A stretch of DNA of 32,000 nucleotides, from the NCBI RefSeq assembly GCF_017876815.1, contig NZ_JAGIOS010000003.1:630001-662000 (forward strand), given 5' to 3'. Of this stretch, positions 464-32,000 are shown piece by piece. Both the position numbers and the translations under genes were made by a program. The notes beneath the pieces are model-generated. The model saw nothing but the letters and a program-made list of their open reading frames with translations, ran no database searches and was not told where the DNA came from. How positions within the stretch are numbered: the stretch's first letter is position 1; every line of letters starts with the position of its first letter. The stretch comes from Sinorhizobium meliloti (GTDB lineage: Bacteria; Pseudomonadota; Alphaproteobacteria; Rhizobiales; Rhizobiaceae).

Positions 464-536
464 CCCGTTCCTTCCTCGTCACGTCGAAGGAAGAAACTTC
501 ACACCAGCAGAACACCCACGCCAGATGCTTTCCGAT

Positions 537-634
537 GGGGGCGGCATCATCTCGGAATCAGGGGGCGACTATTTCTCGGAATTGGGGGGCGAGATCATTT
601 CGGAATCAGGGGGCGGATTGCCTCGGAATTTGCA
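537..634. repeat. Four tandem ~23-25 bp terminal repeats of the IS21-family end (GGGGGCG-N8-10-TCGGAAT)
   Basis: Copies lie at 537-560, 561-583, 584-608 and 609-631, followed by the terminal GCA. The same motif recurs at 16247-16273 and 20441-20491. Confidence 0.65.
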
Positions 635-922
635 GAATGCGGGGGATGACGCATCGTGCGCAAACCCGAGCACGTCAGCAGCGGCCACGTTAAGCGGCGA
701 TTCTCATGCGTTCAGAGGATGGCGTTCAGGCGGCGGCACAACCCGAAGGATGTTCCATAGGGCAATACCCACCACATCATGCTGCACAAACGCTACGGAT
801 TACCCAACGAGTGCAATCAGAAGAAGGGAGGCGCCAGTCCGCTGGCGGCCAACGAGCAGATCTGAGAGCCAGTGTGAGGTGGGTTGAGGCAGCCTTCGTC
901 GCGGATCGTAGTCGTAACCTCG

Positions 923-4413: not shown

Positions 4414-4419
4414 TTCTGC

Positions 4420-5850: not shown

Positions 5851-6043
5851 TGTTCTCCCGGCCTAAAAAAGATCTGACAGCCCATCTGATCTTATTCCAG
5901 TATCCGGAGACAGCTGCTCCGCCGATCGCCAACGCACCGATCAAGCCCTGAACGAGCATGCTGCCCGTGCCGGGGTCGAGATATGCATGAGCTGGCACAA
6001 TAGAAAGGATGAGAAATCCCACAACACTCATAATTATCGGCAT
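5828..6043 (-). CDS. Small membrane/secreted protein (71 aa) with a YLDPGTGS motif, between nodL and noeA
   Basis: MPIIMSVVGFLILSIVPAHA-YLDPGTGSMLVQGLIGALAIGGAAVSGYW... It has a signal-like segment plus one TM. GAAGGGGA lies 8 nt upstream of the ATG at 6043 (the track start is 6076). Its 3' end overlaps the noeA start by 23 nt. Confidence 0.55.
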   Translation of the reverse strand: MPIIMSVVGFLILSIVPAHAYLDPGTGSMLVQGLIGALAIGGAAVSGYWNKIRWAVRSFLGRENNGKNGGK

Positions 6044-6239
6044 CGATATCCCCTTCGCATGTTGGTTGTTATTCAAGTTTTAACGGCGGTCAATTTCCTG
6101 TGCCTTCAGTGGCTGGTCCTGATTCTGTTGCGCCCCGAACGTACGCATGGAAGCGTCGCGGCCTCAGCACAGGATACTGTCGGCTGAGCGCCTAGAGAGC
6201 TCGAACCATCTGGCAAGCGCGCCACCAAGGAGCCGAAGG

Positions 6240-16324: not shown

Positions 16325-17203
<879 letters not shown>

Positions 17204-17207
<4 letters not shown>

Positions 17208-17986
17208 GGGCGGTTCTCCCGTGCCATGGCTTTGCCCACGGCGTCATAAAACGCCAGCGACCGATGAGAGACTCTGTCGCCAGCGCCCTGAAGAACGACG
17301 CTGCTATCGGTGGACGGCGGCAGTGAACGCTGGCAGGCCATGCTTCGACGATGATCGGGGTGGATGTGTCGTTGCCTGCGCCCCTCGAGGACAGGATGGA
17401 CGGCGATCAGCGTGCCGTTCTCGAAGATGCGGACCTCGTCCGCGAGCGAATGGACTTCGACCATCCGGCTGCCGGTCGCGTCGGGAACACTGTAGGCATT
17501 GCCGCCGACGCTGACCATGCCTTCGCGGGAGATGCGGCGCTCCAACTTCAGAACCGAGCGGAAAGCGGCGAGCGGAAGCGGTCGCAAATGCGGCCGTTCT
17601 TCGGCGAAAGCCTCATTGACGACGCGTAAGGTGGTGGCATGCGTGCGCGGATTGGCGACGCTGTCCAACCAGTGCCGCAGTTGAGCGTTGAGGTCGTCGA
17701 GGTTGCGGAACGAGCGCGCCAGGAAGAAGTCTTCCCGAATATAGCGAAACGGTCTCTCGACCTTGCCCTTCGTCTTGGCCCGATAGGGACGGCATGCCCG
17801 GGGATGAAAGCCGTAGTGACGCGCGAGATCAACAAGCGCACGGTTATAGACAATACCCTCTGTCTCGCCCTCGCCGATGACTGCCGTCTTCATCCGATCG
17901 TACAGGATCTCGCGCGGAACGCCCCCAATCGCCTCGAAGGCGGCGACATGGCAACGCAGCACGGTCGGCAGGTTCTGATGATCGGC
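17204..17986 (-). CDS. istA: IS21-family transposase IstA, 3' exon (downstream of the group II intron)
   Basis: ADHQNLPTVLRCHVAAFEAIGGVPREILYDRMKTAVIGE... It is 261 codons including the stop. The part of track ORF 17204-18655 upstream of 17986 is read-through into the intron. Confidence 0.85.
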
Positions 17987-19810
17987 ATAGGGGCGGCCGT
18001 TGTGACCGCGCCCCTGCCACACCACCCGGCATGCGGGTCCGCACCGGGCGGTTCGAAGAGTTGAGGTCAGGCGAGGCGGGGGATACGGAGGGCATCCATC
18101 CACCTGAGGGTTAGGACCGAATTGAGCAACATGCCGCTGTTGCGCCACCATCTGCGGCTGTTGACCGCGATCTGCCGTGCCACTTCGGGCTTGGCGCCCT
18201 TGGCAAGCAGGGCCTTGTAGGTGGTCTTGCCACGCTTCCAGTGCTTGAGCTGGATCGCGCGCACCCGGTGACGCATCCACTCCTCCAGCTCCTTGAAGAG
18301 CCTTGGAGTTTGTGCCAGCCGGAAGTAGGCTTTCCAACCCAGAACATAGACGCGCAGGCGCTCGGCCACTTCCGCCATGCTGCGCCCGCCCGAACGGCGG
18401 GTCAGTTGCCGGACGCGGCGCTTGAACGCCTTGAGCGGCTTGTCGGCCACCCTGCGCTTGACCGCGCCATCCCGGCCCCGCCAGAAGCTGAAGCCGAGGA
18501 ACTTGCGGCCAAACACACTGGTAACCGCGCTCTTGCCCTCGTTGATCGTCAGGTGCAGCCGTCCGTAAAGCCGCCGCAGAAGCGCCATGACCCGTTCGCC
18601 CGCCTTGCGGCTGCCAACGTAAACGTTGCAGTCGTCCGCATAGCGCACGAAGCAATGGCCCCGGCGTTCCAGTTCCTTATCCACCTCATCGAGCAGCACA
18701 TTGGCCAGAAGCGGCGACAGCGGCCCGCCTTGCGGCGTGCCCATCACCCGCTCCTGGACCACGCCATGGTCCATGATGCCGCTGTTCAGATAGGCCCGGA
18801 TCAGGCGGATAACCCGCTTGTCCGATACCCGTTTGCTGAGGCGGTCGATCAGGATGTCGTGGTTGACCCGGTCGAAGAACTTCTCCAGGTCGACGTCCAC
18901 GACAATCCGCCGGCCCGACTGCACGTATGACTGCGCCTCGAGGACAGCGTCATGCGCACTACGGCCCGGCCGGAAGCCGTGGCTGTGCTCGCTGAAAGCG
19001 GGATCAAGGAGCGGCTGCAGCACTTGCAGCAGCGCCTGCTGGATCAAGCGATCCGTCACCGTCGGGATGCCGAGCTCGCGCTCGCCCCCATCCGGTTCGG
19101 GATCGTCACCCGTCGCACCGGCATCGGCCGGTACGTTCCCGCCAGAACCCGTTCGCGGATGCCAGGCCACGACGTGCGCAGATGAGCCGCGGTCGCCTCG
19201 ATGGACAGACCGTCCGCACCAGCCGCGCCCTTGTTGGCCTTCACCCGTTTCCAAGCTCTTTGCAGGTTCTCGCGCGCCAGGGCCGCTTCCAGCAGCCCCG
19301 GCCCTGTGCTCTGCGCGTCACAGCGCGGGCAGGTCGCTTCATCGCTGCCCGGTTCAGACAGGGCTTCACCCTGTCTCCCCACGGACCGCCCCGCTCTCGC
19401 GGGCATCTGATGCCTGGCTTCCTGCATCGCTATGCCTCAAGCACTCCTCTTCGTTCGGTCCTTCGCCGCGGATACGGCTACTACGACCTCTGCTGACTTC
19501 TCGCTCCGGCTCGACACCGTCGCCCTTTCAGGCGCAAGGCGAGATCTCCCCGGGTAAGAACGCATTCCTTCACCGCACCACCGCCGGATCTACGCCGCCG
19601 CCCCTTGGTCACGAGAGCTTCGCGGTTCATGGCCCGCTCGCCCTGGTCGGCACCGCCTCATATCCGGTTCTTGTTCATCGGCACGCGGTTTACGCTCCAC
19701 GCTTCCTCCCCACGCTCGGTCACCCTCACGCAGTTGCGCTTCACTTCACTCGCTGTGACCAGCTCGTGGCGGGACTTCCACCCGCAGGAATGCGCCCATG
19801 CCGGGCGCAC
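17987..19810 (-). mobile_element. Bacterial group II intron (1824 nt) in the sense strand of istA
   Basis: The 5' end is GUGCGCCCGGCAUGGG. There is a domain V-like hairpin ACCGCCCGGUGCGGACCCGCAUGCCGGGUGGU and a domain VI stem AGGGGCG...CGCCCCU, with the intron ending AU. An RT/maturase ORF occupies domain IV. Removing the intron joins the istA exons in frame (...ARFVM|ADHQNL...). Confidence 0.85.
18067..19427 (-). pseudogene. Group II intron-encoded reverse transcriptase/maturase, one-base frameshift; no endonuclease domain seen
   Basis: The N-terminus LLEAALARENLQRAWKRVKANKGAAGADGLSIE...YRPMPVRRVTIP is in one frame. DGGERELGIPTVTDRLIQQALLQVL...RYADDCNVYV (the YADD motif) is in another. The break is at CCGAACCGGATGGG (19096-19097), where AAA is expected. 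The length is 1361 nt, which is not a multiple of 3. Confidence 0.85.
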
Positions 19811-20296
19811 CATGACGAAGCGCGCCCAGATGAGGCGGCTGTAGCCGAGCACCATGGAAAACAACCAGACGATCCTCGGCGTCGTCGGTTCATCGGTGAA
19901 CACGACATGAAACTGGGCAAAATCGACCTGCGCCTGCTCGCCCGGCGGCGTCTCGAAGCGAACCTCGAACCCTTGCTCGCTCGGTGGTCGAACGTCACGC
20001 AAGAAGTCGGTCAGCGCCGTGTAGCCGCCGGAATAGCCGAGATCCTTGATCTCGCGGAAAAGCCGCCGCGCTGTCAGGCCGGGATAGGCCTGCACGCGTT
20101 CGCGAAGATAGGCCGCGAACGGGTCGATCACCGTCGCTCTTGGCTTGCGCGGGCCATAGACCGGAGCCTCCAGCCCGCGCTCGATGTACTTGCGCACCGT
20201 CTTGCGATCGATACCAGCCTGCCTGGCGATCGCTGACACCGACAGACCTTGCCGATGTAGATCCAGGATCATCATCATCTCCCTCAGCTTGATCAC
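19811..20296 (-). CDS. istA: IS21-family transposase IstA, 5' exon
   Basis: (V->M)IKLREMMMILDLHRQGLSVSAIARQAGIDRKTVRKYIERGLEAP...LFSMVLGYSRLIWARFVM. The GTG at 20296 has AGGGGG 7 nt upstream (the track start is 20341). This exon has 162 codons, giving 422 aa with exon 2. Confidence 0.8.
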
Positions 20297-20440
20297 CGAA
20301 ATCCCCCTTCCGACCATCGGAAGCAGTATCGGTGATAACATGTGACCGATCTTCCGGGGCGCGCGCCGGAAGACCGCTCACGGCGCAAACTGGGGAAGAT
20401 TCAAACGGCACATTTGGGGAGTATTGTTCCGGTATCCACA

Positions 20441-20491
20441 CCGGGGGCGCAATCATCTCGGAACAAAGGGGCGGCTTCATCGGAATCGGCA
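20441..20491 (+). mobile_element. Terminal piece of the interrupted IS21-family remnant (continuation of 16010-16273)
   Basis: CCGGGGGCGCAATCATCTCGGAACAAAGGGGCGGCTTCATCGGAATCGGCA. It carries the same repeat motif as 537-634 and ends in CA at 20491, where the IS630 reading frame is cut. Confidence 0.65.
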
Positions 20492-20965
20492 TGGAAAGAC
20501 CCATCTCGTCTATGAAGACGAGGCGGGCTGGATCGAGGTCAAGCTGTGCATCGAACCAGTCCTGAAGCCGCTTCAGGAGGTCTGGCCGCTCCTGCTCCAA
20601 TGCGCTTTTTTTGAATGTGAAGCCGCGCTTGCGCAGCCAGACGTCGAGGGTGCTGCGGCCGATAGAGACGGATCGGTCCTCTTCCAGACGCAAAACCATC
20701 TGTTCAGAGTGATGTCCTTCGACGCCTCGATCATGCCGATGATGAAAGCCTCATGATCGTCGAGACGGGAACCTCCAGGTCGACCCTGCTTGGCAGCGCT
20801 CACCTGCCCCTGCCGGGCGCTCGCGATCCAGGCAATCGCCGTCGAAATCCCGATCCCGAACCGCGCTGCAGCCGACCGCGCGGACATCCCACTAGCCGAC
20901 GCAGCAAAAACCCGGTGGCGAGGGCGGCTTGTAGGCGCGCTTCTGGCCGCGACCTTGAAGATGAC
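20492..20965 (-). pseudogene. IS630-family transposase, frameshifted and 3'-truncated by the IS21 end
   Basis: ...RHRVFAASASGMSARSAAARFGIGISTAIAWIA...HEAFIIGMIEASKDITLN, then a frame switch to MVLRLEEDRSVSIGRSTLDVWLRKRGFTFKKSA.EQERPDLLKRLQDWFDAQLDLDPARLVFIDEMG. It is cut at 20491/20492. Confidence 0.75.
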
Positions 20966-21056
20966 AAGGCCTGACGATCACGCCTATCGGCGGATGCATT
21001 TTGATCCCATGAAGTACAGTCTCGACGAGAAGCCAGTTAATGTCGTTTGGGGGCGC

Positions 21057-21983
21057 CTAAGACATTTCTCCCTGAAATTCGCTGCGCGAGGCTTCCTGCA
21101 AGAGTAACTCCCGGATCCAGACATTTCCGGGATCCTTGTCGTGGAGGGCGGGCCACTGGACAGCCTCAGTGAACCAGAGGGGTGGCAGCGGATGCTTGAC
21201 GATCCGCAGGGGTATCGTTTGTTCGAAATACTTTACCAGGCGCAATGGGAGAATGGCTATACGATTGGTGCCCGGCAGCAACGGCGGAATCAAGGTAAAA
21301 CCTGGCACGACAAGTTCGACACGTCTCTTGAAGCCGTGCTCCAGCAATAGCCATTGTTCGAAGGAGGGCTTCAAGGCACGCCCGAACTGGGCTGCAACAT
21401 GCCCCATCGATATATATCTTTCGAAAGAGAGATCCCCAAGCAACTGCTCATTCGTCGGGCAGCCGACGCACACGAGTGGCTCGGCAAACAGCTTCGCTTT
21501 AGGGTGCGCACTCGACATGAACAAGTCCGGAAGAATTAGAAAATCAACATCACCGCGCCGGAGAAGCTCATAGGGATCGTCGTCTAGCGGCAGCAACTCG
21601 AAGCTGACGCCAGGAGCCTCCCGAGCCAAGCGCTCCACAACCCGCTCAAAGAATACAAGTGTCATGAAGTCCGAAAGGATGATCCTGAAACGGCGATCCG
21701 ACTGGGCTGGGTTGATCGGATCCCAAGCAATGATGGAGAGCTGAATGTGCAGTAAGGCCTCACGCACCGCAGGGGCGAGCGCTTCGGCACGCGGTGTCGG
21801 GATAAGATCGCGGCCCTGCATCGAAAACAGCTCGTCGCCAAAATAGGTGCGCAGGCGCGCGATAGCCGCGCTCATGGCCGGTTGACTGAGCTTGACCCTG
21901 CGTGCGGCGGCCGTGAGCTTGCGCTCGGTCATCAGTGCGTCGAGCGCGACGAGGAGGTTTAGATCTAGGCCCCTAAAACGCAT
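21057..21983 (-). CDS. nodD: LysR-type nodulation regulator NodD (probably the nodD2 paralogue, judged by its position next to the fix repeat)
   Basis: 308 aa, [58 protein letters not shown]... It is collinear with NodD over its full length. Confidence 0.95.
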
Positions 21984-21990
21984 GTGCGGT

Positions 21991-22037
21991 ATCCATAGCG
22001 GAGATGATTGTTCCCAAACAAACGATTTTCACACTCC
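21991..22037 (+). promoter_or_regulatory. nod-box-like sequence divergent from nodD, partly degenerate
   Basis: ATCCATAGCGGAGATGATTGTTCCCAAACAAACGATTTTCACACTCC. The first ATC-N9-GAT module is intact. The second module is degenerate (TTC...GAT). By eye, about 33 of 47 positions match the consensus. Confidence 0.6.
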
Positions 22038-22736
22038 CATTAGAGAACCCTGAAGTTAACGAAATCAAGCTTCAGTGAAGGATTCTTTCCTCATGACCTC
22101 GCTGGACTGACATTTCATCCCTCATTCAATTCATCGATCGCCGGACGGGGCCGATTTTCCTGCCAAGCAGGCAGGCGAGTCAAAGACCAGGCGTCAAGGT
22201 CATTTTTCAGTTGCTCAGGGCTCCGCTTGGACTTACCGCCACGGCCGTTGCCGACCCCCCCTTGCCGTAGAACGCGATCTAACGCTGAGCTGCCACCTTG
22301 TTTCCTTCGTTGTTTGAAGCATCTCGGTCGTTCGGACACATGCAGCAGGAGATTTCCGCTTTTACTAAGCAGCTTGCCTCGGCCGGCGCCGACGAAATCG
22401 GCCAGTGCATCGAACGCCTCAGGAGCGGCGGCATGCGGATCTCCGAAACGATCACTGCTGCAAACCCGGTCGAAGAATACCGGGAGGTGTAATGGTAGGT
22501 CGACCGCTCAAGTCGAGTGCGCCGCAAGCACGCCGGATCGAGATCGTCCAATCCCGGCACATACCCTTCACCACCTCCCGCTTCCGAGCAGGCCTTGAAG
22601 CTTCGCCGAATGACATCCTGCAACATCTCGAGGTCCAGCGTATGCGGCGTCCACGCCCCATCGATTATTCAGTTGCGGCGATCTGAGGTTGATCGACGGG
22701 CCGTCAAATGAGCTCACCGAAGAGTATCTGACGAGC

Positions 22737-22954
22737 TCATTGTGAGGCCTGGATGCGAGCGGCATAGGCCCATGGCATCAGGGCATCGATGTCTTTGGCG
22801 AGGTGGCCGTTTGCGAGGCGGGTGAAGAGGTTGCACAGATAGGCGTAGGGCTCAACGCCGTTCATTTTACAAGTGCCGATCAGGCTGGCAAACCGGGCCC
22901 AATTGCGGCCCCCTTCATCGTGCCCCGCAAAGAGCGCATTGCGGCGGTTCATGG
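22737..22954 (-). pseudogene. tnpC: IS66-family transposase TnpC, C-terminal fragment
   Basis: MNRRNALFAGHDEGGRNWARFASLIGTCKMNGVEPYAYLCNLFTRLANGHLAKDIDALMPWAY. This is the conserved IS66 TnpC tail. It continues the frame of 25542-26955 exactly. Confidence 0.9.
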
Positions 22955-22957
22955 CCA

Positions 22958-23440
22958 TTGCAAGGTCATTCTACCCATATCGGCGAATATGTGACCATTC
23001 ATTACCCACATCATCCGCTTTTTGGGAAGCGCGTGAGACGTCAGGGCGTCGATCATCGCAAAGGCGGGGCGGTCGCGCACATCGAGACGACGCCCGGTAA
23101 TGTCATTGTCATTCCGACGTGGATGCTGGATCCGATTGCCTGTGCGGGCATGGAGATTGGCGAGCCCCGTGCTTCCCTTGAAGCGCTCATTGAACTCGCC
23201 AGTCTATTGACCCCTCAAGGTGAGAGGGCACCCTCGTCAACTGCCAAAGCAGTTGACGAGGAGGTTCCAGATGAAACTGCCAACGCCAATTCCACCCGAG
23301 GGTCCGCGCCAGATGATCATGGCGTTCGACTCGGTGAAGACGCGTGGGATGAGCCCGCGCCAAAGGGAAGCCGCACTGATGGCATTGGCCATGTTGTTGA
23401 TGGAGGCGGCCTGTGTAGCGGAGAAGGAGGCGCCGCATGA
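22958..23440 (+). CDS. Hypothetical protein upstream of the recombinase (structured N-terminal ~75 aa, low-complexity tail)
   Basis: VTIHYPHHPLFGKRVRRQGVDHRKGGAVAHIETTPGNVIVIPTWMLDPIACAGMEIGEPRASLEALIELASLL. Its stop overlaps the recombinase ATG (ATGA). It has no clear SD. Its 3' half competes with ORF 23268-23450. Confidence 0.4.
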   Translation: MQGHSTHIGEYVTIHYPHHPLFGKRVRRQGVDHRKGGAVAHIETTPGNVIVIPTWMLDPIACAGMEIGEPRASLEALIELASLLTPQGERAPSSTAKAVDEEVPDETANANSTRGSAPDDHGVRLGEDAWDEPAPKGSRTDGIGHVVDGGGLCSGEGGAA

Positions 23441-23450
23441 ACGCGTTTAG
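23268..23450 (+). CDS. Hypothetical 60-aa helical protein overlapping the recombinase start
   Basis: MKLPTPIPPEGPRQMIMAFDSVKTRGMSPRQREAALMALAMLLMEAACVAEKEAPHERV. A strong SD GAGGAGG lies 8 nt upstream. It is in an alternative frame to the tail of 22958-23440. Confidence 0.45.
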   Translation, partial: QMKLPTPIPPEGPRQMIMAFDSVKTRGMSPRQREAALMALAMLLMEAACVAEKEAPHERV

Positions 23451-25512
23451 CCCTCTGCCGCCAGCGCTTCTGAAGCGTAAAGCCGTCGTCTATGTGCGAC
23501 AATCGAGCCAAAGCCAGGTCATGCAAAATCTCGAGAGCCAACGGCGCCAATACGATCTTGTGGATGCTGCGCGCCAGCACGGTTTCCGACGGGTCGAGGT
23601 GATTGATGATGACCTCGGATTGTCGGCGAGCGGCGCGGTCGCCCGTCCGGGGTTCGAACGTCTTGTCGCCTGGCTCTGCGCCGGAGACGTCGGCGCCGTT
23701 TTGTGTTTCGATGCTTCGCGTCTCGCCCGAAACGGGCGTGACTGGCATCATTTGCTCGAACTTTGCGGCCTCGTGGACGCCCGCGTCATCGACCAGGACG
23801 GCGTCTATAATCCGTGCTCTCCTAATGATCGTTTGCTTTTGGGCATGAAGGGCACGATCAGCGAGTTCGAGCTTGGCATTATTCGCGCGCGCATGCTCGA
23901 CGCTGCGCGTGCCAAGGCCAGACGCGGAGAGCTGCGCATCAGCGTTCCTATCGGTTATATCTGGTACCGCGATGCGGGCCTTGGTTTCGATCCGGATCTG
24001 CGCGTGCAGGAAGCCGTCCGTCTGATCTTCAGCCGGTTTCGAGAGCTGAGAAGCGGTCGCCAGGTACTGTTGTCGCTGACGGAAGACAAGCTTTGCTTCC
24101 CACGTCCGACGGACGGACGCAACACGACGACTTTCGACTGGACACCGATCCGATATCGCAATGTCATCTCGGTGCTAAAGAATCCGTTTTACGCTGGCGT
24201 TTATGCTTACGGCAAAAGCGAGAAGCGCACCGAGATTATCGATGGCCGCGCCCGCAAGACCTATGGCCATGGCAAACCGAAGGAGGAGTGGGAAGTTTTT
24301 CTCAAAGATCACCACGACGGTTATATCGAATGGGACGAATATGAACGCAACCAGGCGCTGCTCGCCGCCAACGCCTATGGGCAAAAGGGCGGTGCAAAAT
24401 CGGGCCGCGGTGGGCGTGCGCTGCTTTCTGGGCTCCTTTCCTGCGGTCGTTGCGGGCGGCGCCTGTGCGTCGCCTATACCGGCAAAACGCCACGTCCGGT
24501 TTACCGCTGCGAACGCCCCAATTTGATGTTAGGACTCAATCGATGTCTTGGCTTCGGCGGCCCGCGAATTGACAAAGCGGTTGCCGCGGAGCTTCTGCGC
24601 GTAGTCCAGCCGATGGCGATAGAGGCGGCGATGCAAGCTGAACACATGCAGTCTGAGGCGCGAGCTGAACGCCGCCGCGCCGCTGAACTCGACCTGCAGA
24701 AGGCGCAATATGAAGCTGCGCTCGCAGAACGACGCTACGCCGCCTGCGATCCCGACAATCGCCTGATCGCGGCAACGCTGGAGAAGAACTGGGAGGTCGC
24801 TTTAAAACGCCTGGAGGCCTGCAAGACACGCCTTGACGCCGAACAGCTCCCGGATACCCCGGCAAAGCTGCCTGATTTAGATGGCTTGGCGGAAGATCTG
24901 CAGGCCGCCTGGAATGCGCCGGGCGTCAGCACGCGGGCGCGGCAGCGCCTCGCGCGGGCGCTGATCAAGGACATCATCGCTGATGTCGACGAAGAAGCGC
25001 GCGACGTCGTCCTGACAATCCATTGGCAGGGTGGTCAGCACTCGCAACTGCGCGTCAGAAAGCCCAAGACCGGCGAACATGGTTGCAATACGTCCGAAGA
25101 CGCTCTTGAGGTCATGCGTTCCATGGCTGGAAGATGGAGCGACAGCGATATCGCAGCCACTCTCAATCGCATGGGCATACGCACAGGCTTTGGCCACACC
25201 TGGACGGCTCACCGCGTCTCTTCGATCCGCCGTGTCAACGATATTCACGCATACTTTTCTGCCGAAAAGAGCGGCAAATGGCTGACGATGACGGAGGCGG
25301 CCACCAAACTCGGCGTGACAAACCACGTCATCCGCAACCTGATCAAGGCAAAAATCCTGCCGGCCGAACAAGTCGTGCCCAGAGCGCCTTATCAGATTAA
25401 AGCCGTTGATATCGAACGCGAAGATATCATTGAAGCGATTAACAATAGACGACGGAAACGCCCATATCGCGACCCTCGGCAAATCGCCCTTCCAATAAAT
25501 TCAATTACTTAG
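23437..25512 (+). CDS. Large serine recombinase (resolvase/invertase catalytic domain + recombinase domain + zinc ribbon + coiled coil)
   Basis: 691 aa. The catalytic N-terminus is AVVYVRQSSQSQV...RPGFERL...CFDASRLARNGRDWHHLLELC. The zinc ribbon is CGRCGRRLCV...YRCERP. A long helical region follows. GAAGGAGG lies 7 nt upstream. Confidence 0.9.
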   Translation: MNAFSPLPPALLKRKAVVYVRQSSQSQVMQNLESQRRQYDLVDAARQHGFRRVEVIDDDLGLSASGAVARPGFERLVAWLCAGDVGAVLCFDASRLARNGRDWHHLLELCGLVDARVIDQDGVYNPCSPNDRLLLGMKGTISEFELGIIRARMLDAARAKARRGELRISVPIGYIWYRDAGLGFDPDLRVQEAVRLIFSRFRELRSGRQVLLSLTEDKLCFPRPTDGRNTTTFDWTPIRYRNVISVLKNPFYAGVYAYGKSEKRTEIIDGRARKTYGHGKPKEEWEVFLKDHHDGYIEWDEYERNQALLAANAYGQKGGAKSGRGGRALLSGLLSCGRCGRRLCVAYTGKTPRPVYRCERPNLMLGLNRCLGFGGPRIDKAVAAELLRVVQPMAIEAAMQAEHMQSEARAERRRAAELDLQKAQYEAALAERRYAACDPDNRLIAATLEKNWEVALKRLEACKTRLDAEQLPDTPAKLPDLDGLAEDLQAAWNAPGVSTRARQRLARALIKDIIADVDEEARDVVLTIHWQGGQHSQLRVRKPKTGEHGCNTSEDALEVMRSMAGRWSDSDIAATLNRMGIRTGFGHTWTAHRVSSIRRVNDIHAYFSAEKSGKWLTMTEAATKLGVTNHVIRNLIKAKILPAEQVVPRAPYQIKAVDIEREDIIEAINNRRRKRPYRDPRQIALPINSIT

Positions 25513-25541
25513 AAAGGGGGTGCATAATGACTCATGTCCGG

Positions 25542-26955
25542 CAATGGGGCGCAGGGCCCGTTCGGCGGCGTTGTTATCCATGGCGACGCGACCGTCTTCG
25601 AGGAATAGGCAGAATGAGTGCCAGCGGCTCAGGCCGTAACGGAAGGCGCTCGCCAGATCGCCCTTGCCCGGAATACGGGTCAGTTGCGCTTCAGCCCAGA
25701 CGCGCAAGGCTTCGACCTTTGCTGTGCTGTGCTTCTGACGAGCAGCAAGGCGGATATCGGCAGGCTGGCCTGCAATGTCGCGCTCGATGTCGTAAATCGC
25801 GCCGATACGGTCGAGAGCCTCGCGCGCGATCTCGGATTTGTTCGAGATCCAGATATCATGGAAGTCACGTCGCCAATGCGCCCAGCAGGCCGCTTCCCGG
25901 AAGCGGCCTGTGCCGTCCGCTCCTGGCTCATAAAGCTTCCCGTAGCCTTTGTAGCCGTCAGCTTGAAGGATGCCGCTTGTCTGCCTGAGGTGATGGTGGA
26001 CGTGCTCTTCCTTCCAGTCGGAAGCAAAGTAGTAGACCGTTCCCGGTGGAGCAGCGCCCGCCCAGGGACGCTGATCGCGGACATAGGTCCAGATCCTGCC
26101 CTTCTTCACGCCTTTGCCCAACCCCTTATCCCGAAGAGAACGATCGAGCACCCGGATCGGGGTGTCGTCGGCATGGAGAAGGTCACTGCTCATGACCACC
26201 GCCTCGATCCGCTCAATCAGCGGCTGGAGCACCTGCATGGCGCGACCGCACCAATCGACCAGCGTGCTGTCCGGAATGTCGGCGCCCATGCGGGCGAAGA
26301 TCTCGTTCAGGCGATACAAAGGCAGGTGATCGTCGAACTTCGAGACCAGAATGTAAGCCAGAAGCCCAGCACCTGCCATGCTGCCCGGTATCGGACGGCT
26401 CGGCGCCGGCAACTGCACCATCTTCTCGCAGCAACGGCAGGACTTCTTCAATCGGGCGACCTCGATGACCTTCATCTGCGCAGCGATCATGTCGAGGATT
26501 TCGCTGGCGTCCTCGCCGACAAGGCGCAATTCACCGCCGCAATCGGGGCAGCAGGTACCCGGATCGAGTTCTTTGCGCTCGCGCGCTGCCTTTTCCGATA
26601 CCCGCGGACGGCGGCGCATGGTCTTCTCGGGCCTGCTTGCCACAGGCGCGGCAGGCACTGCCGCATCGACCTCATCGAGCGGCTTGGTGCTGTTTTCCGC
26701 TGCGGCGATTAAAAGATCCTCCAGCGCGAGTTCCAGCTGCTGGATTTCCCGTTCGATCTTTTCCGAGGACTTGCCGAAGACCTGTTTCTTCAGCTTGGCG
26801 ATGCGCAGTCGCAGTTCCCCGATCAATTGGTCGTGCGCCTGCAACGTCGCCGACATCTTCGCGTTTTCCGCCTGCAAGGCGGCGATCATCGCCTTCAGGA
26901 AGGCCGGATCGTCGGGAAGATTTTGGCTCGCGTTTGACATCATCCTGACTACCAT
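25542..26955 (-). pseudogene. tnpC: IS66-family transposase TnpC, N-terminal 471 codons (interrupted)
   Basis: It has a leucine-zipper-like N-terminus, zinc-finger CPDCGGEL...CRCC and the DDE region ...LHADDTPIRVL...LQADGYKGY...DNNAAERALRPIA. The frame then runs into the inserted element (track ORF 25501-26955). Confidence 0.9.
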
Positions 26956-27003
26956 AGGTCAGGACGAGTATCCATAAAAACAAGCAGATTCAGTGAGATA
27001 AAA

Positions 27004-27351
27004 TCAACCGACACGCGCCGGCGGAGCGCCCCAGTTGGGCCGTCGCCAATCAATCCCTTCCCAAAGCATGGCCAGTTGCGCGGTTGTCAGCCGGGCCGTT
27101 CCATCGGCTGCTGAAGGCCATGGAAAACGCCCCCTCTCCAAAATTTTATAGTACAGGCAGAAGCCCTGGCCATCAAAATACAGGAGTTTCAAACGATCGC
27201 CCCGTCTGCCTCGAAACGCGAAGACTGCACCTCCCGTCGGCTTCTGGCGCAGCACATCCTGCGCAAGCGCAGCCAAACCTTCTACCCCTTTGCGCATGTC
27301 CGTGGCTCCGCAAGCGAGATACACTCGAACACCGGTTCCTGGTCCAATCAT
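27004..27351 (-). CDS. tnpB: IS66-family accessory protein TnpB (Orf2)
   Basis: 115 aa, VRVYLACGATDMRKGVEGLAALAQDVLRQKPTGGAVFAFRGRRGDRLKLLYFDGQGFCLYYKILERGRFPWP. Its start overlaps the tnpA stop by 4 nt. Confidence 0.9.
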   Translation of the reverse strand: MIGPGTGVRVYLACGATDMRKGVEGLAALAQDVLRQKPTGGAVFAFRGRRGDRLKLLYFDGQGFCLYYKILERGRFPWPSAADGTARLTTAQLAMLWEGIDWRRPNWGAPPARVG

Positions 27352-27722
27352 GCTGCTTCAACCGCCCGGATGAGCCGAGTGAGGACGGCGGGATCGACGC
27401 CACTGTCGAAGCGAAGGCTGCGCCCATCGTTCAACCGCAACTCGATCATTGCAGACACGCGCGCAACGTCCTCACGCACCAGCGGGGCGCCATGCATGGC
27501 GGCCATGTCTACGGGAACGAAGACCGTATCGGCCGTGGACGGCAACAAACCCTTCTTCTTCAGCTCATGCCGCCAGGCGTAAATCTGCTGCCGGCTTACA
27601 TCGTGCCGATGGGCAACCTCCGTGACCGTCGCACCGTCGAGCCCAATCGACATGACAACGTCGAGCTTCTTCGCGTCACCCCAACGCCGCCGCCGTTCCT
27701 GACCAAGAATTTCGACACGCAT
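27348..27722 (-). CDS. tnpA: IS66-family accessory protein TnpA (Orf1), HTH
   Basis: MRVEILGQERRRRWGDAKKLDVVMSIGLDGATVTEVAHRHDVSRQQIYAWRHELKK. The ATG at 27722 has GGTGAGG upstream (the track start is a GTG at 27734). Confidence 0.85.
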   Translation of the reverse strand: MRVEILGQERRRRWGDAKKLDVVMSIGLDGATVTEVAHRHDVSRQQIYAWRHELKKKGLLPSTADTVFVPVDMAAMHGAPLVREDVARVSAMIELRLNDGRSLRFDSGVDPAVLTRLIRAVEAA

Positions 27723-27821
27723 CCCATACCTCACCTAAGACACGTCGCTAACGACGTCGTTAATGACGTGTCTTAGGTCATCAAGGCGCTATCCGGCAGG
27801 CGGTGCCAATCGGGTGCTTAC

Positions 27822-27921
27822 GCTTCAAGGAAGGCAATGCCACGCAAACCGGAAGGTCAACCACCAATGCCAAGGAAAGTGCTGATTCTGCTTGAAGGCA
27901 CTAGAATGGGTACTGGTCAGC
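27822..27921 (+). repeat. Copy A of a reiterated ~70-100 bp segment (RBS + first ~18-25 codons of the ATP-grasp gene)
   Basis: GCTTCAAGGAAGGCAAT...GGAAGGTCAACCACCAATGCCAAGGAAAGTGCTGATTCTGCTTGAAGGCACTAGAATGGGTACTGGTCAGC. It is closely similar to 31491-31587 and more distantly to 30960-31030. It begins at the base immediately after the IS66 terminus. Confidence 0.8.
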
Positions 27922-29105
27922 TATACGTCCAAGCGGCGAAGCTTCTTGGATTGCACCCAATTGTCCTGTCAGCTGACCCGGCACGTTACAACTATCTTGC
28001 AACGGAAAACGTCGAGGCTATCCGTGTCGACACGGACGATCTCGACGCGCTGATCCGTGAATGCTCCCGGCTCCGGGAGACCTATGACATTGTCGGCATT
28101 ACGGGCCTTCCAGTCCCCGGCGAGGCGGTCTATGCGACCGTTGCCAAGCTCTGTCGGCATTTCGGTCTACCGGGACCAAACCCCGCATCGATTGATCAAT
28201 GCTGCGACAAATTCATCCAGCGTCAACTGCTCGCGGAGGCTGGTGTTCCCGTACCTGTCTGTCGCATGGCAACGAATGCGGCGGAGGTAGAAAGTGCTGC
28301 CGCGGAGATCGGCCTGCCAGTGATCCTGAAACCTGCCGCTGGCAACGGAAGCACCGGTGTCCGTTTGTGCCGCGATGCCGAGGAGCTAGCCGAACACACG
28401 GTTTATCTGCTGGGCGGAACGTACGAATGGCAGACTTCGCCGAGGATACTGGTCGAAGAATTCGCAGAGGGGCCCTATTTTATTGCTGATATAATGGGGA
28501 ATACTATCATTGAGATAGGCGCCGGTGATTTCGGACCCCCGCCGAATTTCGTCTATCGTGAGTACACCTATCCGGCCTCGCTGACTGATGACCAGCGGAC
28601 GCGTATCACCGATGTTTCGCTGAGCTGCTTAGGCGCTCTCGACCTTAACTGGGGACCAACGAACATTGAATTCCGGTGGACAGAGCGTGGCCTGGTTGTC
28701 ATTGAAGTCAATCCGCGTCTTGCTGGCTCGCCCGATCCTCAGCTGATTCAGCTGGCTTGCGGTGTCGATCTTGTCATGGAGCACATCAAGCTTGTCATTG
28801 GCGACGAATGCGATTTGCGCAAAAGGCATTCGCAGACTGCGTCCGCACGGTTCCTGGTTCCGGATCGAGCCGGCACCCTCGACCGTATCGATGGCGCCGA
28901 TCAGGCAGCTGGTGTACCGGGTGTCGCCGAGGTCACATGGTATATTAAGCCCCCGACGCCGATCATCATGAAAGGCGACTGCCAAGACTGTATCGGACAT
29001 GTCATCGCCGCTTCTCCAAACCCTACCCAAACCTCGGCGATACTTCAGCGTGCAGTCGACTCAATCACCTGGTCGATTACACCGTTTCCGACCATCGACG
29101 ACTAG
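27867..29105 (+). CDS. ATP-grasp domain protein (carboxylate-amine / L-amino-acid-ligase-like)
   Basis: MPRKVLILLEGTRMGTGQLYVQAAKLLGLHPIVLSAD..., LPVILKPAAGNGSTGVRLC, VVIEVNPRLAG. The ATG at 27867 is the start position conserved in repeat copy B. An alternative ATG lies at 27837. Confidence 0.85.
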   Translation: MPRKVLILLEGTRMGTGQLYVQAAKLLGLHPIVLSADPARYNYLATENVEAIRVDTDDLDALIRECSRLRETYDIVGITGLPVPGEAVYATVAKLCRHFGLPGPNPASIDQCCDKFIQRQLLAEAGVPVPVCRMATNAAEVESAAAEIGLPVILKPAAGNGSTGVRLCRDAEELAEHTVYLLGGTYEWQTSPRILVEEFAEGPYFIADIMGNTIIEIGAGDFGPPPNFVYREYTYPASLTDDQRTRITDVSLSCLGALDLNWGPTNIEFRWTERGLVVIEVNPRLAGSPDPQLIQLACGVDLVMEHIKLVIGDECDLRKRHSQTASARFLVPDRAGTLDRIDGADQAAGVPGVAEVTWYIKPPTPIIMKGDCQDCIGHVIAASPNPTQTSAILQRAVDSITWSITPFPTIDD

Positions 29106-29201
29106 GAACAATCCGTTACCTGCACCAGCGCAGGTGGACTGGGCTCCGGAATTGGGAAAAGGGGATAAGTGGGGTTCTGCGCGGCTGCGAACAGGGAGAC
29201 G

Positions 29202-29370
29202 ATGAGCAAGAAACCCGGCCGGAACCACCCCCGGGCTTTCAAGGGAGAAGTGGCCTGGTCGCCGTGAAGCGCAAGAAGACTCTGCCGAACTGGTCCAACG
29301 GTCTGATGTGCATCCCAACCGGATGAGCCAGTGGAGGGCCCAACTCCGAGGCGGCGCAGCCGGCGGTGGG
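29202..29370 (+). mobile_element. IS3-family orfA remnant, multiply frameshifted
   Basis: MSKKPGRNHPRAFKGEVA / LVAVKRKKTLPELVQRSDVHPNRMSQWRAQL spread over three frames. This resembles the IS3-family OrfA signature RNHSPAFKAKVAL...GEKTLAEL...FDVHPNQI..WK.QL. Confidence 0.55.
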
Positions 29371-29538
29371 GCATTGGGCTTATACACCTATCTGCATCGA
29401 GAGCGGCATGGCCCAGTTCCGCGTTTGCCGGCGCAGTGAATCGACGGTGGCGACTAAAAAACGCTTTACCGTCCTTCGTCACGGCTCTCCAGTACCTGAG
29501 TGCTGACTTTCCCCGGTTAGGGAAATTCCACTCTCATC

Positions 29539-30879
29539 GGTAGTGTGCTGAAGGTTCTGCAAATTCACTGAGAGAGGCGGTCATGGCAGGCTGGTGATGT
29601 TGAACGTCACCTGATTCCCTGGAAGGAACGCCACCATGACCAAGACTGAAGGTAGGACAGCCAGCGCCGCCGTCAAAGACATTTTGCTTTCGAACCCCGA
29701 TGGGCTGCGCGAGGTGATCCGCACGGTGATGCAGGAGGTGCTGGAAGCGGAGATGGACGAGGCGCTGGGAGCTGCGAAAGGCGAGCGCACGCCGGAGCGG
29801 CTCGGCTACCGTTCGGGCCACTATGGCCGCACGCTGATCACGCGGGTGGGCAAGCTCGAGCTGCGGGTGCCGCAGGATCGCTCGGGGCACTTCTCCACCG
29901 AATTGTTCGAACGCTACCAGCGCTCCGAGCGGGCGCTGGTGGCAACCTTGGCGGAGATGTATGTGCAAGGGGTGTCGACGCGGAAGGTCAAGGCGATCAC
30001 CGAGGAGCTGTGCGGCCATGCCTTCTCGGCGTCATCGATCTCGGCGATCAACAAGCGGCTGGACGAGAGCCTGAAGGCCTTTGCCGAGCGCTCGCTTCAA
30101 GAGCCGTTTGCCTACCTGATTCTCGATGCCCGTTATGAGAAGGTGCGCGAGGCCGGTGTGGTGATGAGCCAGGCGGTGTTGATCGCTGTCGGCATCGACT
30201 GGGACGGACGGCGGCAGATCCTGTCGGTCGAGATGGCCGGCCGTGAAAGCCGTTGCGCCTGGAAGGACTTCCTCGTCAGGCTGAAAGGGCGCGGTTTGAA
30301 GGGCGTCGAACTGGTGGTCTCCGACGACCATGCCGGTCTCGTCGCGGCAATTGGCGAGGTGATTCCGGAAGCTGCCTGGCAGCGCTGTTACGTGCATTTC
30401 CTCAGGAACGCCCTCGATCACCTGCCGCGCAAACATGGCGACGATTGCTTGCAGGAGCTTCGATGGCTCTATGATCGCCGCGACCTTGATGAGGCGAAGG
30501 CCGATCTCGCCGCGTGGCTGGGAAAATGGTCGGTCCGCTATCCGCGCCTGACCTCCTGGGTTGAGGAAACCATCGAGCAGACGCTGACCTTCTTTCGTCT
30601 GCCGCGCCAGCATCACAAGCACCTCAAGAGCACCAACATGCTGGAACGCCTCAACGAGGAAATCCGCCGCAGAACCTACGTCGTGCGCATCTTTCCCAAT
30701 ACCGAGAGCTGCCTACGCCTCGTCCGCGCGCTCGCCGTCGAAACCCACGAAAACTGGATGGAGGCCAATCGCTACATCAACATGGACGACCTGCGAGAGC
30801 ACAAGAAACTCGCACTCCGTCAAGCCGCATGACCAGCACGCATGACCGCCCAATTTTGCAGAACTTGACGCACACAACC
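29539..30879 (+). mobile_element. IS256-family insertion sequence (1341 bp; ISRm3-like) with an 8-bp target duplication
   Basis: The terminal inverted repeats are GGTAGTGTGCTGAAGGTTCTGCAAATT and GGTTGTGTGCGTCAAGTTCTGCAAAATT. The direct repeat CTCTCATC lies at 29531-29538 and 30880-30887. Confidence 0.9.
29636..30832 (+). CDS. IS256-family transposase
   Basis: 398 aa, ...EAEMDEALGAAKGERTPERLGYRSGHYGRTLITRVGKLELRVPQDRSGHFSTELFERYQRSE...MYVQGVSTRKV...DARYEKVRE...VVSDDHAGL... This is the mutator-type DDE signature. Confidence 0.95.
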   Translation: MTKTEGRTASAAVKDILLSNPDGLREVIRTVMQEVLEAEMDEALGAAKGERTPERLGYRSGHYGRTLITRVGKLELRVPQDRSGHFSTELFERYQRSERALVATLAEMYVQGVSTRKVKAITEELCGHAFSASSISAINKRLDESLKAFAERSLQEPFAYLILDARYEKVREAGVVMSQAVLIAVGIDWDGRRQILSVEMAGRESRCAWKDFLVRLKGRGLKGVELVVSDDHAGLVAAIGEVIPEAAWQRCYVHFLRNALDHLPRKHGDDCLQELRWLYDRRDLDEAKADLAAWLGKWSVRYPRLTSWVEETIEQTLTFFRLPRQHHKHLKSTNMLERLNEEIRRRTYVVRIFPNTESCLRLVRALAVETHENWMEANRYINMDDLREHKKLALRQAA

Positions 30880-30959
30880 CTCTCATCCATTTGTCGGCAG
30901 TGATCGCCGAAATTTCCAATCGGGGGCGCCATGACATTTCCACGGGACGAAGCGGTGAA

Positions 30960-31030
30960 CCTCAAGGAAAGGTCAACACCAATGAAACGACGAGCACTTG
31001 TGTTGGTCGAAGGATCAACGGGTAATGGCC
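30960..31030 (+). repeat. Copy B (most diverged) of the ATP-grasp 5' segment
   Basis: CCTCAAGGAAAGGTCAACACCAATGAAACGACGAGCACTTGTGTTGGTCGAAGGATCAACGGGTAATGG encodes MKRRALVLVEGSTGNG. The ATP-grasp N-terminus is MPRKVLILLEGTRMGTG. Homology is lost before the NifA UAS. Confidence 0.6.
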
Positions 31031-31098
31031 TACTAGACGTGCGCATATGCGGACCCTGGACGCGTGGCGACCAGGCATACGACATTGTCCGTCGCTTT

Positions 31099-31114
31099 TG
31101 TCGGCTTTACGACA
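31099..31114 (+). promoter_or_regulatory. NifA upstream activator sequence (TGT-N10-ACA)
   Basis: TGTCGGCTTTACGACA lies about 90 bp upstream of the -24/-12 promoter. Confidence 0.75.
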
Positions 31115-31199
31115 CAGATTGTTCCTCCAACCGTGCGGCCACTTTCCGATCTAACTCTCTGAAAAACAGCCATTAGCATTATTAGTAACTCCCTCGGCC

Positions 31200-31215
31200 T
31201 GGCACGACTTTTGCA
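31200..31215 (+). promoter_or_regulatory. Sigma-54 (-24/-12) promoter of nifH type
   Basis: TGGCACGACTTTTGCA matches TGGCAC-N5-TTGCA exactly. It is followed by a nifH-like leader and start codon. Confidence 0.85.
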
Positions 31216-31295
31216 CGATCAGCCCTGGGCGCGCATGCTGTTGCGCATTCATGTGTCGGAACAATCGAAATAGTTTAAACAACAAAGGAAGCAAG

Positions 31296-31604
31296 ATGGC
31301 AGCTCCGCGTCAGATCGCGTTCTACGGTAAGGGGGGTATCGGCAAGCCCACGCGGAAGGCTGAGCTGGTAACCGCGCCCATCGAAGATCGCAGCCTCGGC
31401 TCTCCGTCAAAAAACGAGGCGCACTTCCACAGCCGCATGAACGTCATGGCTAACATGCGCGGCGGCCACGGCTTCCGCGTTCCATCCGCAGCTTCAAGGA
31501 AGGCAATTAAACACAAATGGAAAGGTCAACCACTGCCGAAGAAAGCGCTGATTCTGCTTGAAGGCACTAAAATGGGTACTGGTCAGCCGCCAGTGGCGTC
31601 ATGA
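31296..31604 (+). CDS. Chimeric ORF: first ~17 codons of nifH fused to unrelated sequence and to copy C of the ATP-grasp 5' segment (mos ORF1-like)
   Basis: [17 protein letters not shown] (the NifH N-terminus and P-loop), then [16 protein letters not shown]..., ending [27 protein letters not shown]. It has RBS AAGGAAG. Its stop overlaps the next ATG (ATGA). Confidence 0.6.
31491..31587 (+). repeat. Copy C of the ATP-grasp 5' segment
   Basis: GCTTCAAGGAAGGCAATTAAACACAAATGGAAAGGTCAACCACTGCCGAAGAAAGCGCTGATTCTGCTTGAAGGCACTAAAATGGGTACTGGTCAGC. By eye it is about 85% identical to 27822-27921. Confidence 0.8.
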
Positions 31605-31798
31605 TCAGCGACTCCTCCGACCACCGCTTCGATGCAATGCCGTTTGGCGGTTTCAAATATGACGGCATGGACCGCGAGGGCGTCCGATTTGCCTCTGAGG
31701 ACATGACGCAGCCGAAGGTGGTGTGCATCAACCGCATGAAAACACAGAGCCACGCCTGCTCAAATCCATCCACAACTCAAGGGGCAAAGAATGTTTGA
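31601..31798 (+). pseudogene. Aldehyde dehydrogenase C-terminal remnant kept as a short coupled ORF
   Basis: [39 protein letters not shown] matches the ALDH C-terminal PFGG-K-SG-GRE ... E-K motif. Only about 40 homologous codons are present. Its stop overlaps the next start. Confidence 0.6.
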
Positions 31799-32000
31799 GG
31801 GTTCGATTACCGCGCTTGTCACGCCTTTTGCTGATGATCGCATCGATGAGGTTGCATTGCGCGACCTCGTCGAGTGGCAGATCGAAGAGGGATCCTTCGG
31901 TCTCGTTCCATGCGGGACAACAGGGGAAAGCCCGACGCTCAGCAAATCCGAGCATGAGCAGGTGGTCGAGATCACGATCAAAACCGCAAACGGGCGTGTG
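31791..32000 (+). CDS. mosA: 4-hydroxy-tetrahydrodipicolinate synthase (DapA) family protein, N-terminal part; MosA-like by context (partial, runs off the window)
   Basis: [70 protein letters not shown]. The DapA signature GTTGE is present. RBS AAGGGG. It lies downstream of the nifH-type promoter mosaic. Confidence 0.7.

Follow-up and report, generated by a model that had tools for sequence, protein, structure and literature searches.

Large serine recombinases (LSRs) are the transposases of the clostridial serine transposons Tn4451/Tn4453 (TnpX) and Tn5397 (TndX), which pass through a circular form and recombine by a 2-bp crossover, without duplication beyond the core. Members of the Tn4451/Tn5397 group are 6-21 kb long, contain genes for resistance and mobilisation, recombine at a GA core and accept loose targets resembling their own joint, and in Tn4451 the circle junction switches on the recombinase through a junction promoter. 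The small recombinase of IS607 (TnpA) has an N-terminal MerR-like helix-turn-helix (HTH) and low target specificity. Homing into other mobile elements is known for the group II intron RmInt1 in ISRm2011-2 of Sinorhizobium meliloti, the Tn5053/Tn402 'res hunters' and streptococcal integrative and mobilisable elements with serine integrases that target genes of integrative and conjugative elements (ICEs), the common strategy being that a conserved site in a mobile element is a safe, multi-copy and horizontally spreading landing pad; RmInt1 and Tn5053/Tn402 rely on retrohoming or DDE transposition, whilst the streptococcal elements are larger and carry mobilisation genes. Here we analysed a 32,000-nucleotide stretch of S. 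meliloti DNA (contig NZ_JAGIOS010000003.1, positions 630,001 to 662,000; hereafter the window), identified as part of a pSymA-type replicon by comparison with a plasmid collection. Within it, a 2,587-bp unit (22956-25542) carrying an LSR of 691 amino acids (aa) lies between two in-frame pieces of tnpC, the transposase gene of IS66-family insertion sequences (ISs). Very probably, this unit is an autonomous mobile element that has the LSR as its only enzyme, homes to one conserved codon of IS66 tnpC and has a gene completed only when the unit is circular.

The unit functions like Tn4451/Tn5397 and with the chemistry of phage serine integrases, but it is a member of neither group, nor of IS607. 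The catalytic domain of TnpX is amongst the nearest solved structures to its LSR, with a similarity that is marginal (E about 2e-4) and confined to that domain. Unlike Tn4451/Tn5397, the unit is only 2.6 kb long, has no cargo and uses one IS66 tnpC codon with GC, or a variant of it, as core; its circle junction, unlike that of Tn4451, completes a coding sequence as well. Pfam searches found no DUF4368 in its LSR, a domain common in the multi-targeting LSR clade (PMC10083194). With the phage and ICE serine integrases (phiC31, Bxb1, SPbeta SprA and the A118 family), the LSR shares the order of resolvase, recombinase and zinc-ribbon domains (Resolvase PF00239, E = 6.9e-24, aa 16-165; Recombinase PF07508, E = 3e-17; Zn_ribbon_recom PF13408, E = 1.3e-6) and an attachment (att) site in the form of a ~40-50-bp imperfect palindrome with a central dinucleotide, and the catalytic residues R21, Q22 and S23 were invariant in 16 homologues. 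It differs from them in its 2.6-kb context without phage or conjugation genes, in an extra C-terminal HTH (HTH_17 in Pfam; aa 615-660) that is excisionase-like by NCBIfam and PHROGs, in a core that varies within the family and is often palindromic, and in having another mobile element as target. Assignment as a prophage or ICE integrase was rejected, the element being bounded at 2.58-2.63 kb and many contigs being of element length. IS607 resembles the unit in being IS-sized, with a serine recombinase and a circular form, but an IS607-type element was likewise rejected (NF033518, 16.9 bits against a cut-off of 110; no TnpB). Scores for the NCBIfam XisF and CcrA/B/C models were far under their cut-offs.

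The features of the element and of its flanks are as follows, in window coordinates, with L numbers denoting loci used in comparison.

22639-22953, minus strand: terminal ~316 bp of an ISRm14-like IS66 (IS66-X), comprising the tnpC fragment (22737-22953) plus core and the IS end; B arm of attL.
22954-22955, no strand: crossover core GC of attL, from the fixed end geometry and core concordance.
22956-22977, plus strand: left end, made up of the 10-nt inner arm CATTGCAAGG, which varies, and then the conserved subterminal repeat TCATTCTACCCA, from the end alignment.
22956-23440, plus strand: body of open reading frame (ORF) 1, from codon 6 to the TGA stop, its N-terminal domain (~95 aa) being conserved and its tail only poorly so.
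23271-23450, plus strand: ORF2, 59 aa, conserved at the protein level, with the ribosome-binding site (RBS) GAGGAGG.
23437-25512, plus strand: LSR, 691 aa, from Pfam domains and catalytic residues.
25512-25530, plus strand: right subterminal repeat GTGCATAATGA (25520-25530), ORF1 RBS GAAAGGGGG (25512-25520) and ORF1 ATG (25527-25529).
25531-25540, plus strand: right variable 10-nt inner arm CTCATGTCCG, which would encode ORF1 codons 2-5 in the circle.
25541-25542, no strand: crossover core GC of attR, from end geometry and core concordance.
25543-26955, minus strand: N-terminal 471 codons of the tnpC of a second element (IS66-Y), from Pfam and 99.9% identity to intact copies in L006; B' arm of attR.
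27004-27822, minus strand: remainder of IS66-Y, with tnpB (27004-27351), tnpA (27348-27734) and the IS end near 27822, where identity with L005 and L006 stops; these are annotated there as TnpB and transposase.

On the minus strand, the tnpC frame runs from 26955 down to 25543, is taken up again at 22953 and ends at 22737. As an initial annotation made from the window alone had claimed, and translation bore out, the frame is broken and resumed at the edges of the insert, and its pieces of 1414 nt and 218 nt join in frame, giving 543 aa and a stop codon and reading ...DNNAAERALRPIA|MNRRNALFAGHDEGG. The target genes belong to the IS66 family, as judged by tnpC domains on both parts (DDE_Tnp_IS66, zf-IS66 and LZ_Tnp_IS66 on the long one and DDE_Tnp_IS66_C on the 73-aa one; Pfam) and by tnpB and tnpA annotated in 99.9% identical copies of the right flank. 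The initial annotation was also right that the insert codes for a 691-aa LSR with its stop 29 bp from the right end, as the Pfam domains confirm, that small ORFs begin at the left end and that AATGA...TCATT arms surround the joined ends, and its element coordinates lie within one base of the core positions derived here from the family. Two of its statements on the ends held in part. The junctions do share the GG that it reported, but the shared bases are actually GGC, with GC as the 2-bp crossover by family-wide symmetry, and whilst it saw no DDE-type terminal repeats, a conserved 11-nt subterminal inverted repeat (GTGCATAATGA / TCATTCTACCC) is present 10 nt from the core. It missed the IS66 target specificity, the family size and the ORF split by the att site.

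Mobility of the unit is documented within Sinorhizobium, where it was found at the homologous codon of four IS66 types, X (L001), Y (L007, L010), W (L011, L095) and Z (L002), that do not align with each other at the DNA level. The Sinorhizobium copies are 100% identical over 2,589 bp, except for one base at the attR core of L002, and such identity amongst copies in different targets indicates that movement was recent. Uninterrupted copies are common, reading ggttcatgGCcggtcgg for X (a junction spanned by 100 records), ccgattCCaatgggg for Y and ctcgtaatcGTttggggcc for Z, and the segment is no regular part of these tnpC genes. Comparison with these copies shows insertion to be base-precise in X and Z and precise save one core base in Y; it adds the element and one additional copy of the dinucleotide, nothing more, the X and Z empty sites holding a single core. 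The initial annotation took the unit for a minimal element mobilised by its own LSR, with no prophage integrase involved, and this view is borne out by the identical copies in four IS66 types, the X and Z empty sites and the ~2.6-kb relatives described below.

The element also hitchhikes with IS66, as indicated by a genome in which an IS66::element composite of 5,394 bp is present twice, at L082 and L089. Such composites, which transpose as units, would fit a recombinase that is a passenger or domesticated gene of a special IS66 subgroup, for example a resolvase or invertase, and that moves only with IS66; automatic annotation, which often calls the whole region an IS66 family transposase, would agree. 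We nevertheless regard this as very unlikely, given that a 100% identical unit occupies four IS66 types unrelated at the DNA level, that tnpC is split inside the transposase, that each IS66 type is commonly found uninterrupted, that a few elements lie in non-IS66 genes (L013, L060, L090) and that contigs with joined ends exist.

A diverged relative, missed by megablast, occupies the same IS66-Y site in plasmid pSmeSM11b of strain SM11 (L005; NC_010865.1, 17671-24070; element at 417-3001 of the locus). Its core is CC, an exact fit to intact IS66-Y, and its recombinase is annotated at only 371 aa and may be decayed. Together with the window-type element in SM11, it shows that two lineages of the family coexist in one strain. 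The three insertions outside IS66 were bounded at 209-2788 (L090), 3518-6099 (L013) and 377-2971 (L060) of their loci. That in L090 has the core GG and breaks an ORF reading ...LVKPETVIRWHHQGFKFYWRWRSR..., which may be the N-terminus of an rve-type (IS481/IS3-like) transposase, whilst L013 lies in an unrelated plasmid-type ORF and L060, whose AT/AA cores are discordant, in another ORF.

Homologues of the LSR number at least 8,000 at E < 1e-20. The best 120 of the listed matches have lengths of 688-710 aa and identities of 70-100%, and they are often located on contigs of 2.2-3 kb, as expected when a multi-copy repeat collapses in assembly. A scan of one genome per species returned at least 585 loci, 80 of which were inspected; these came from Alpha-, Beta- and Gammaproteobacteria, Acidobacteria, Gemmatimonadota, Verrucomicrobia and a planctomycete metagenome-assembled genome (MAG). 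Relatives were further present on 226 plasmid records, mostly rhizobial. TnpC fragments adjoin the LSR in 63 of the 80 inspected loci (tblastn), and 57 of these 63 share the layout of the window, antisense to tnpC, in which a C-terminal fragment (~aa 464-530) lies on the opposite strand ~480 bp upstream of the LSR start and/or an N-terminal part ending near aa 464-482 lies on the opposite strand 30-100 bp past the LSR stop. Three loci (L087, L088, L091) have the reverse orientation at the same codon, and three more (L017, L035, L040) are flanked at either end by a C-terminal piece of tnpC, which indicates recombination between copies. Identity of the flanking TnpCs to X, Y or Z ranges from 28% to 78%, so low that the insertions must be independent, and all reconstructed targets read ...ER..R..[A/V/G/C/K]..RKN.LF.... 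Approximately 58 loci are bounded at 2.58-2.63 kb by conserved ends and tnpC halves and contain no phage or ICE genes; the recombinase relatives are thus not confined to larger prophages or ICEs.

A second tier of plasmid matches (H162-H173), of equal length and 39-46% identical, was detected in Paraburkholderia, Mesorhizobium, Bradyrhizobium, Novosphingobium and Sinorhizobium and may represent sister families with other landing sites. In several RefSeq plasmid records (H150, H154-H157 and H159), nothing but an 'IS66 family transposase' is annotated where the recombinase matches, which probably reflects a pseudogene call across the insertion, and calls of this type leave the elements mostly hidden in present-day annotation.

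The ends of the element are conserved throughout the family. Across ~58 elements of 2,577-2,625 bp, the joined ends conform to GnGCAnAATGA-N10-NN-N10-TCATTCTGCCC, a 44-bp imperfect palindrome of the type that LSRs use as attP. Those of the window read GTGCATAATGA-CTCATGTCCG-GC-CATTGCAAGG-TCATTCTACCC, with GTGCATAATGACTCATGTCCGGCCATTGCAAGGTCATTCTACCC as the expected circle junction. Both junctions carry an identical central dinucleotide in 34 of 40 non-redundant IS66 insertions (GC in 26, AC in five, and TT, CA and CC in one each). Read in the sense of tnpC, it occupies positions 1 and 2 of the codon that lies four residues ahead of RKN, and it varies with that codon (Ala, GC; Val, AC; Gly, CC; Cys, CA; Lys, TT). 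The inner 10-nt arms showed no co-variation with the flanks of their own targets (6.7 of 20 for cognate against 6.4 of 20 for non-cognate pairs). A crossover core of GG was tried and rejected, as it fits the IS66-Y junctions (attB TC, attL TG and attR GG under this choice) worse than GC and lies off the symmetry centre. Two pairs of loci, L082 and L089 (MAG JBBCGS01) and L055 and L056, each hold copies of one composite within a single genome that differ by one core base (attL AC vs CC; attR GC vs AC), which could be the footprint of mismatch resolution after recombination between unlike cores.

The joining of the ends also bears on a gene. Encoded in the ~480 bp that precede the LSR is a conserved ~95-aa domain of the form HSAHIGxEVEVHYRWHPLYGRRV...WMLDP..CA...PRV.L.AL..L..LL (more broadly, HSAHIGxxVxVHYRWHPLyGrrV...WMLDP..CA), which begins one codon inside the left end, where there is no conserved start. 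Start signals for this frame, ORF1, sit instead at the right end of the element, with an in-frame ATG in all 49 junctions and an RBS-like purine-rich motif upstream of it in 47 of the 49. Once right end, core and left end are joined, ORF1 is open in 49 of 51 elements over 164-179 codons (~166 aa), and its stop overlaps the ATG of the LSR (ATGA) in 34 of 48 elements, whilst in a further 11 it precedes that ATG by 5 nt. ORF1 is rarely annotated (19 proteins in a word-indexed search, compared with thousands of LSRs), and where it is, the start is arbitrary, a junction-type ATG having been chosen in only 5 of 164 family proteins inspected. Two of these five were traced to contigs (L096, L097) in which the 3' end of the LSR passes through joined ends into ORF1; a pattern scan revealed a third joined-end metagenome contig (L093), and a fossil junction was found in a genome (L094). 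The joined-end contigs are circles or tandem dimers. ORF1 had no credible family in Pfam, NCBIfam, PHROGs or a PDB profile search, and a Foldseek search of its AlphaFold2 model, a small beta-barrel (residues 11-53) and one helix, against the PDB gave nothing below E = 1.

A junction-spanning frame might also arise as a by-product, with the right-end ATG and purine run kept only as a recombinase-binding site and any translation of ORF1 beginning at other starts. The AATGA that supplies the ATG is part of the symmetric motif GnGCAnAATGA / TCATTnTGCnC, the LSR has its own RBS, and GC-rich DNA is poor in stops; a stop-free 30-nt junction segment is not significant by itself, because an alternative frame is also open across it in 48 of 49 cases. 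On the other hand, the conserved domain starts one codon inside the left end without a conserved internal start, ORF1 stays open for a median of 167 codons compared with 42 in the other open frame, it ends on the ATG of the LSR in 45 of 48 elements, and the RBS-like motif is correctly spaced in 47 of 49. Weighing these observations, we consider the by-product explanation unlikely, albeit one that retains some weight, and favour ORF1 as a gene split by the att site.

The second small ORF, ORF2, overlaps both the tail of ORF1, in another frame, and the start of the LSR, and conservation at the protein level was seen in the ORF2 frame only, with the pattern RQ[ML]x[ML]xFD...L.G[ML]S..ER......LA.LLMEAAGV..EE.DDDER. 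The annotations of L002, L004 and L005 list it as a hypothetical protein, and it had no match in Pfam, NCBIfam or PHROGs. SPbeta SprA uses the 58-aa SprB as a small directionality factor, to which the small upstream ORF offers a parallel, and we propose ORF2 as the best candidate directionality factor of the element. Neither ORF1 nor ORF2 showed homology to a known directionality factor in Pfam, NCBIfam and PHROG searches or, for ORF1, in the PDB profile search. A sigma-70 scan detected no plus-strand promoter within the element or at its ends, and Rfam detected no RNA family within it, leaving a guide or bridge RNA unsupported.

Taken together, these data suggest a cycle in which the LSR would excise the element as a circle, joining its ends into the ~44-bp imperfect palindrome attP, and would then recombine attP with attB, crossing over at the central dinucleotide with a 2-bp stagger. 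As attB, it would use the DNA for the conserved ...ERxxRxx[A]xxRKNxLFAG... motif of IS66-family TnpC. Between such events, the element would reside in IS66 copies, inactivating tnpC, and may be carried along when a transposase acting in trans moves the interrupted IS66. The cistron string ORF1-(ORF2)-LSR would be complete only in the excised form, and this circle-only cistron could raise or modify recombinase activity after excision and so favour re-integration, with ORF2 or ORF1 setting direction. The anatomy, the target specificity, the precise empty sites of X and Z, the identical copies in different targets, the core concordance and the joined-end sequences were observed directly, whilst the catalytic steps, the circle-specific expression and the roles of ORF1 and ORF2 are those that we infer from them.

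Several points weigh against this account. Excision and integration are deduced here from sequence, and joined ends were seen in only three contigs and one fossil, with tandem dimers looking alike. In 6 of the 40 insertions, the cores of attL and attR are 1 nt apart, and the window-type element in IS66-Y has GC at both junctions whereas intact Y reads CC, a discrepancy that points to tolerance of the mismatch, to a target variant or to subsequent repair; classical serine integrases are not known to ligate mismatched cores. A palindromic core is not known to set orientation in characterised serine integrases, yet the commonest core here, GC, is palindromic and the insertions are nearly all antisense to tnpC. 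The ORF1 model is weak, with a mean predicted local distance difference test score of 52, and was not used to assign function, and since the LSR has an RBS of its own, its translation need not depend on ORF1.

The flanks of the window copy are themselves hybrid, a finding that followed from the search for its empty site. The initial annotation had read the locus as one clean insertion into a single intact IS66 tnpC, removal of which would restore TTCATGG|CAATGGGG, and the parts, in agreement with this, join in frame into a TnpC-like protein of 543 aa that contains the conserved motif. They read in frame, however, solely as a result of the use of one and the same codon by all copies. None of 72,556 plasmid records spans the reconstructed site or covers at least 80% of the reconstruction, nor was an uninterrupted IS66 containing GGTTCATGGCAATGGGGCG with both window flanks found amongst them. 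The right flank (25542-27822; IS66-Y) has common 99.9% identical copies, and the uninterrupted ones run ...ttcttccgattC|CAATGGGG, encoding ...RPIGIGRKNWLFAGADTG..., with a C-terminus and junction wholly different from, and unrelated to, the left flank of the window. The left flank is ISRm14-like; intact ISRm14-family copies span it, and it is 99.7% identical to that of L001 (SM11), L003 and L004 (Sinorhizobium medicae), in which the element is followed by the N-terminal part of X itself (...IDSNLVENAIRRP). In SM11 and RU11/001, each of which holds three identical copies, the element with the right flank of the window has the native left flank of Y (...cttccgattG|CCATTGC). A clean single insertion is accordingly highly improbable: the two pieces come from different IS66 elements, and the proposed empty site is a chimera.

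Most likely, the hybrid flanks, X on the left and Y on the right, arose by recombination between two co-oriented copies. Window positions 19338-22641 correspond to SM11 1,074,000-1,077,303 and positions 22951-32000 to SM11 from 1,141,790 on, whilst SM11 is without IS66-X at 1,077,304 and its neighbouring DNA is uninterrupted there. An X::element copy would thus have inserted beside nodD2 and would then have recombined with a co-oriented Y::element copy, with a loss of ~64 kb relative to SM11, either by homologous recombination across 2.6 kb of identity or by LSR action through a tandem intermediate. Mis-joining of two loci across the 2.6-kb multi-copy repeat during assembly is a further explanation, and one that 100% identical copies over 2,589 bp invite, particularly as the window arrangement occurs in neither SM11 nor RU11/001 and its two sides are ~64 kb apart in SM11. 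We consider such an artefact improbable, though to a far lesser degree than a clean insertion, for the IS66-X end in the window stands at a site that is empty in SM11, from which the source genome must truly differ here, and comparably rearranged flanks occur elsewhere (the loci with tnpC C-terminal fragments on both sides).

The wider neighbourhood contains further mobile DNA. A group II intron lies within the istA gene of an IS21-family element (16356-20341, minus strand; istB at 16356-17207), its reverse transcriptase/maturase ORF spanning 18067-19254 and its Rfam domains D1-D4 19458-19729, with the rve/Mu-C part of istA at 17204-18655 and the HTH part at 19658-20341; the window offers here another example of a mobile element lodged in the transposase gene of a different one. 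Directly left of the IS66-X remnant is a nodD2-type LysR regulator (21057-21983, minus strand), annotated as NodD2 in relatives. Directly beyond IS66-Y is an ATP-grasp/L-amino-acid-ligase-type gene (CPSase_L_D2, LAL_C2; 27837-29105, plus strand), to which an 80% identical paralogous stretch occurs ~13 kb away in SM11 and RU11/001, and further to the right is an intact IS256-family gene (Transposase_mut; 29636-30832, plus strand). The nodD2, IS256 and IS66 neighbours place the element in an IS-dense part of the symbiosis plasmid.

In the literature searched, including the main text and supplements of PMC10083194, no report was found of an LSR element that targets IS66 tnpC; coverage was incomplete and an earlier mention is possible. 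The 2.6-kb IS66-targeting LSR element thus appears to be undescribed. Whether it is best seen as a hyperparasitic 'IS of an IS', a cargo-free 2.6-kb element spread over at least 5-6 phyla by homing to one tnpC codon, which senses its state through an att-split gene with translational coupling, has a core that tracks the target codon with single mismatches tolerated and retargets amongst IS66 subfamilies, is in our estimation evenly poised. If so, ORF1 and, by the coupling, the recombinase would be fully expressed from the excised circle alone, and such control of directionality would be unlike that by classical directionality factors. The element would also be the smallest autonomous LSR element known to us. 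The family offers natural experiments on the rules of serine integrases, namely core matching, orientation with a palindromic core and directionality, with the split ORF as a hypothesis for the last. For genome engineering, it provides thousands of compact LSRs with known attP/attB pairs and naturally varied cores. Current pipelines label these loci as IS66 pseudogenes plus a 'recombinase family protein' and miss ORF1 almost entirely. Ultimately, one of the most common IS families would have in this element a widespread parasite, which inactivates IS66 copies and whose identical 2.6-kb repeats can drive large rearrangements of symbiosis plasmids.

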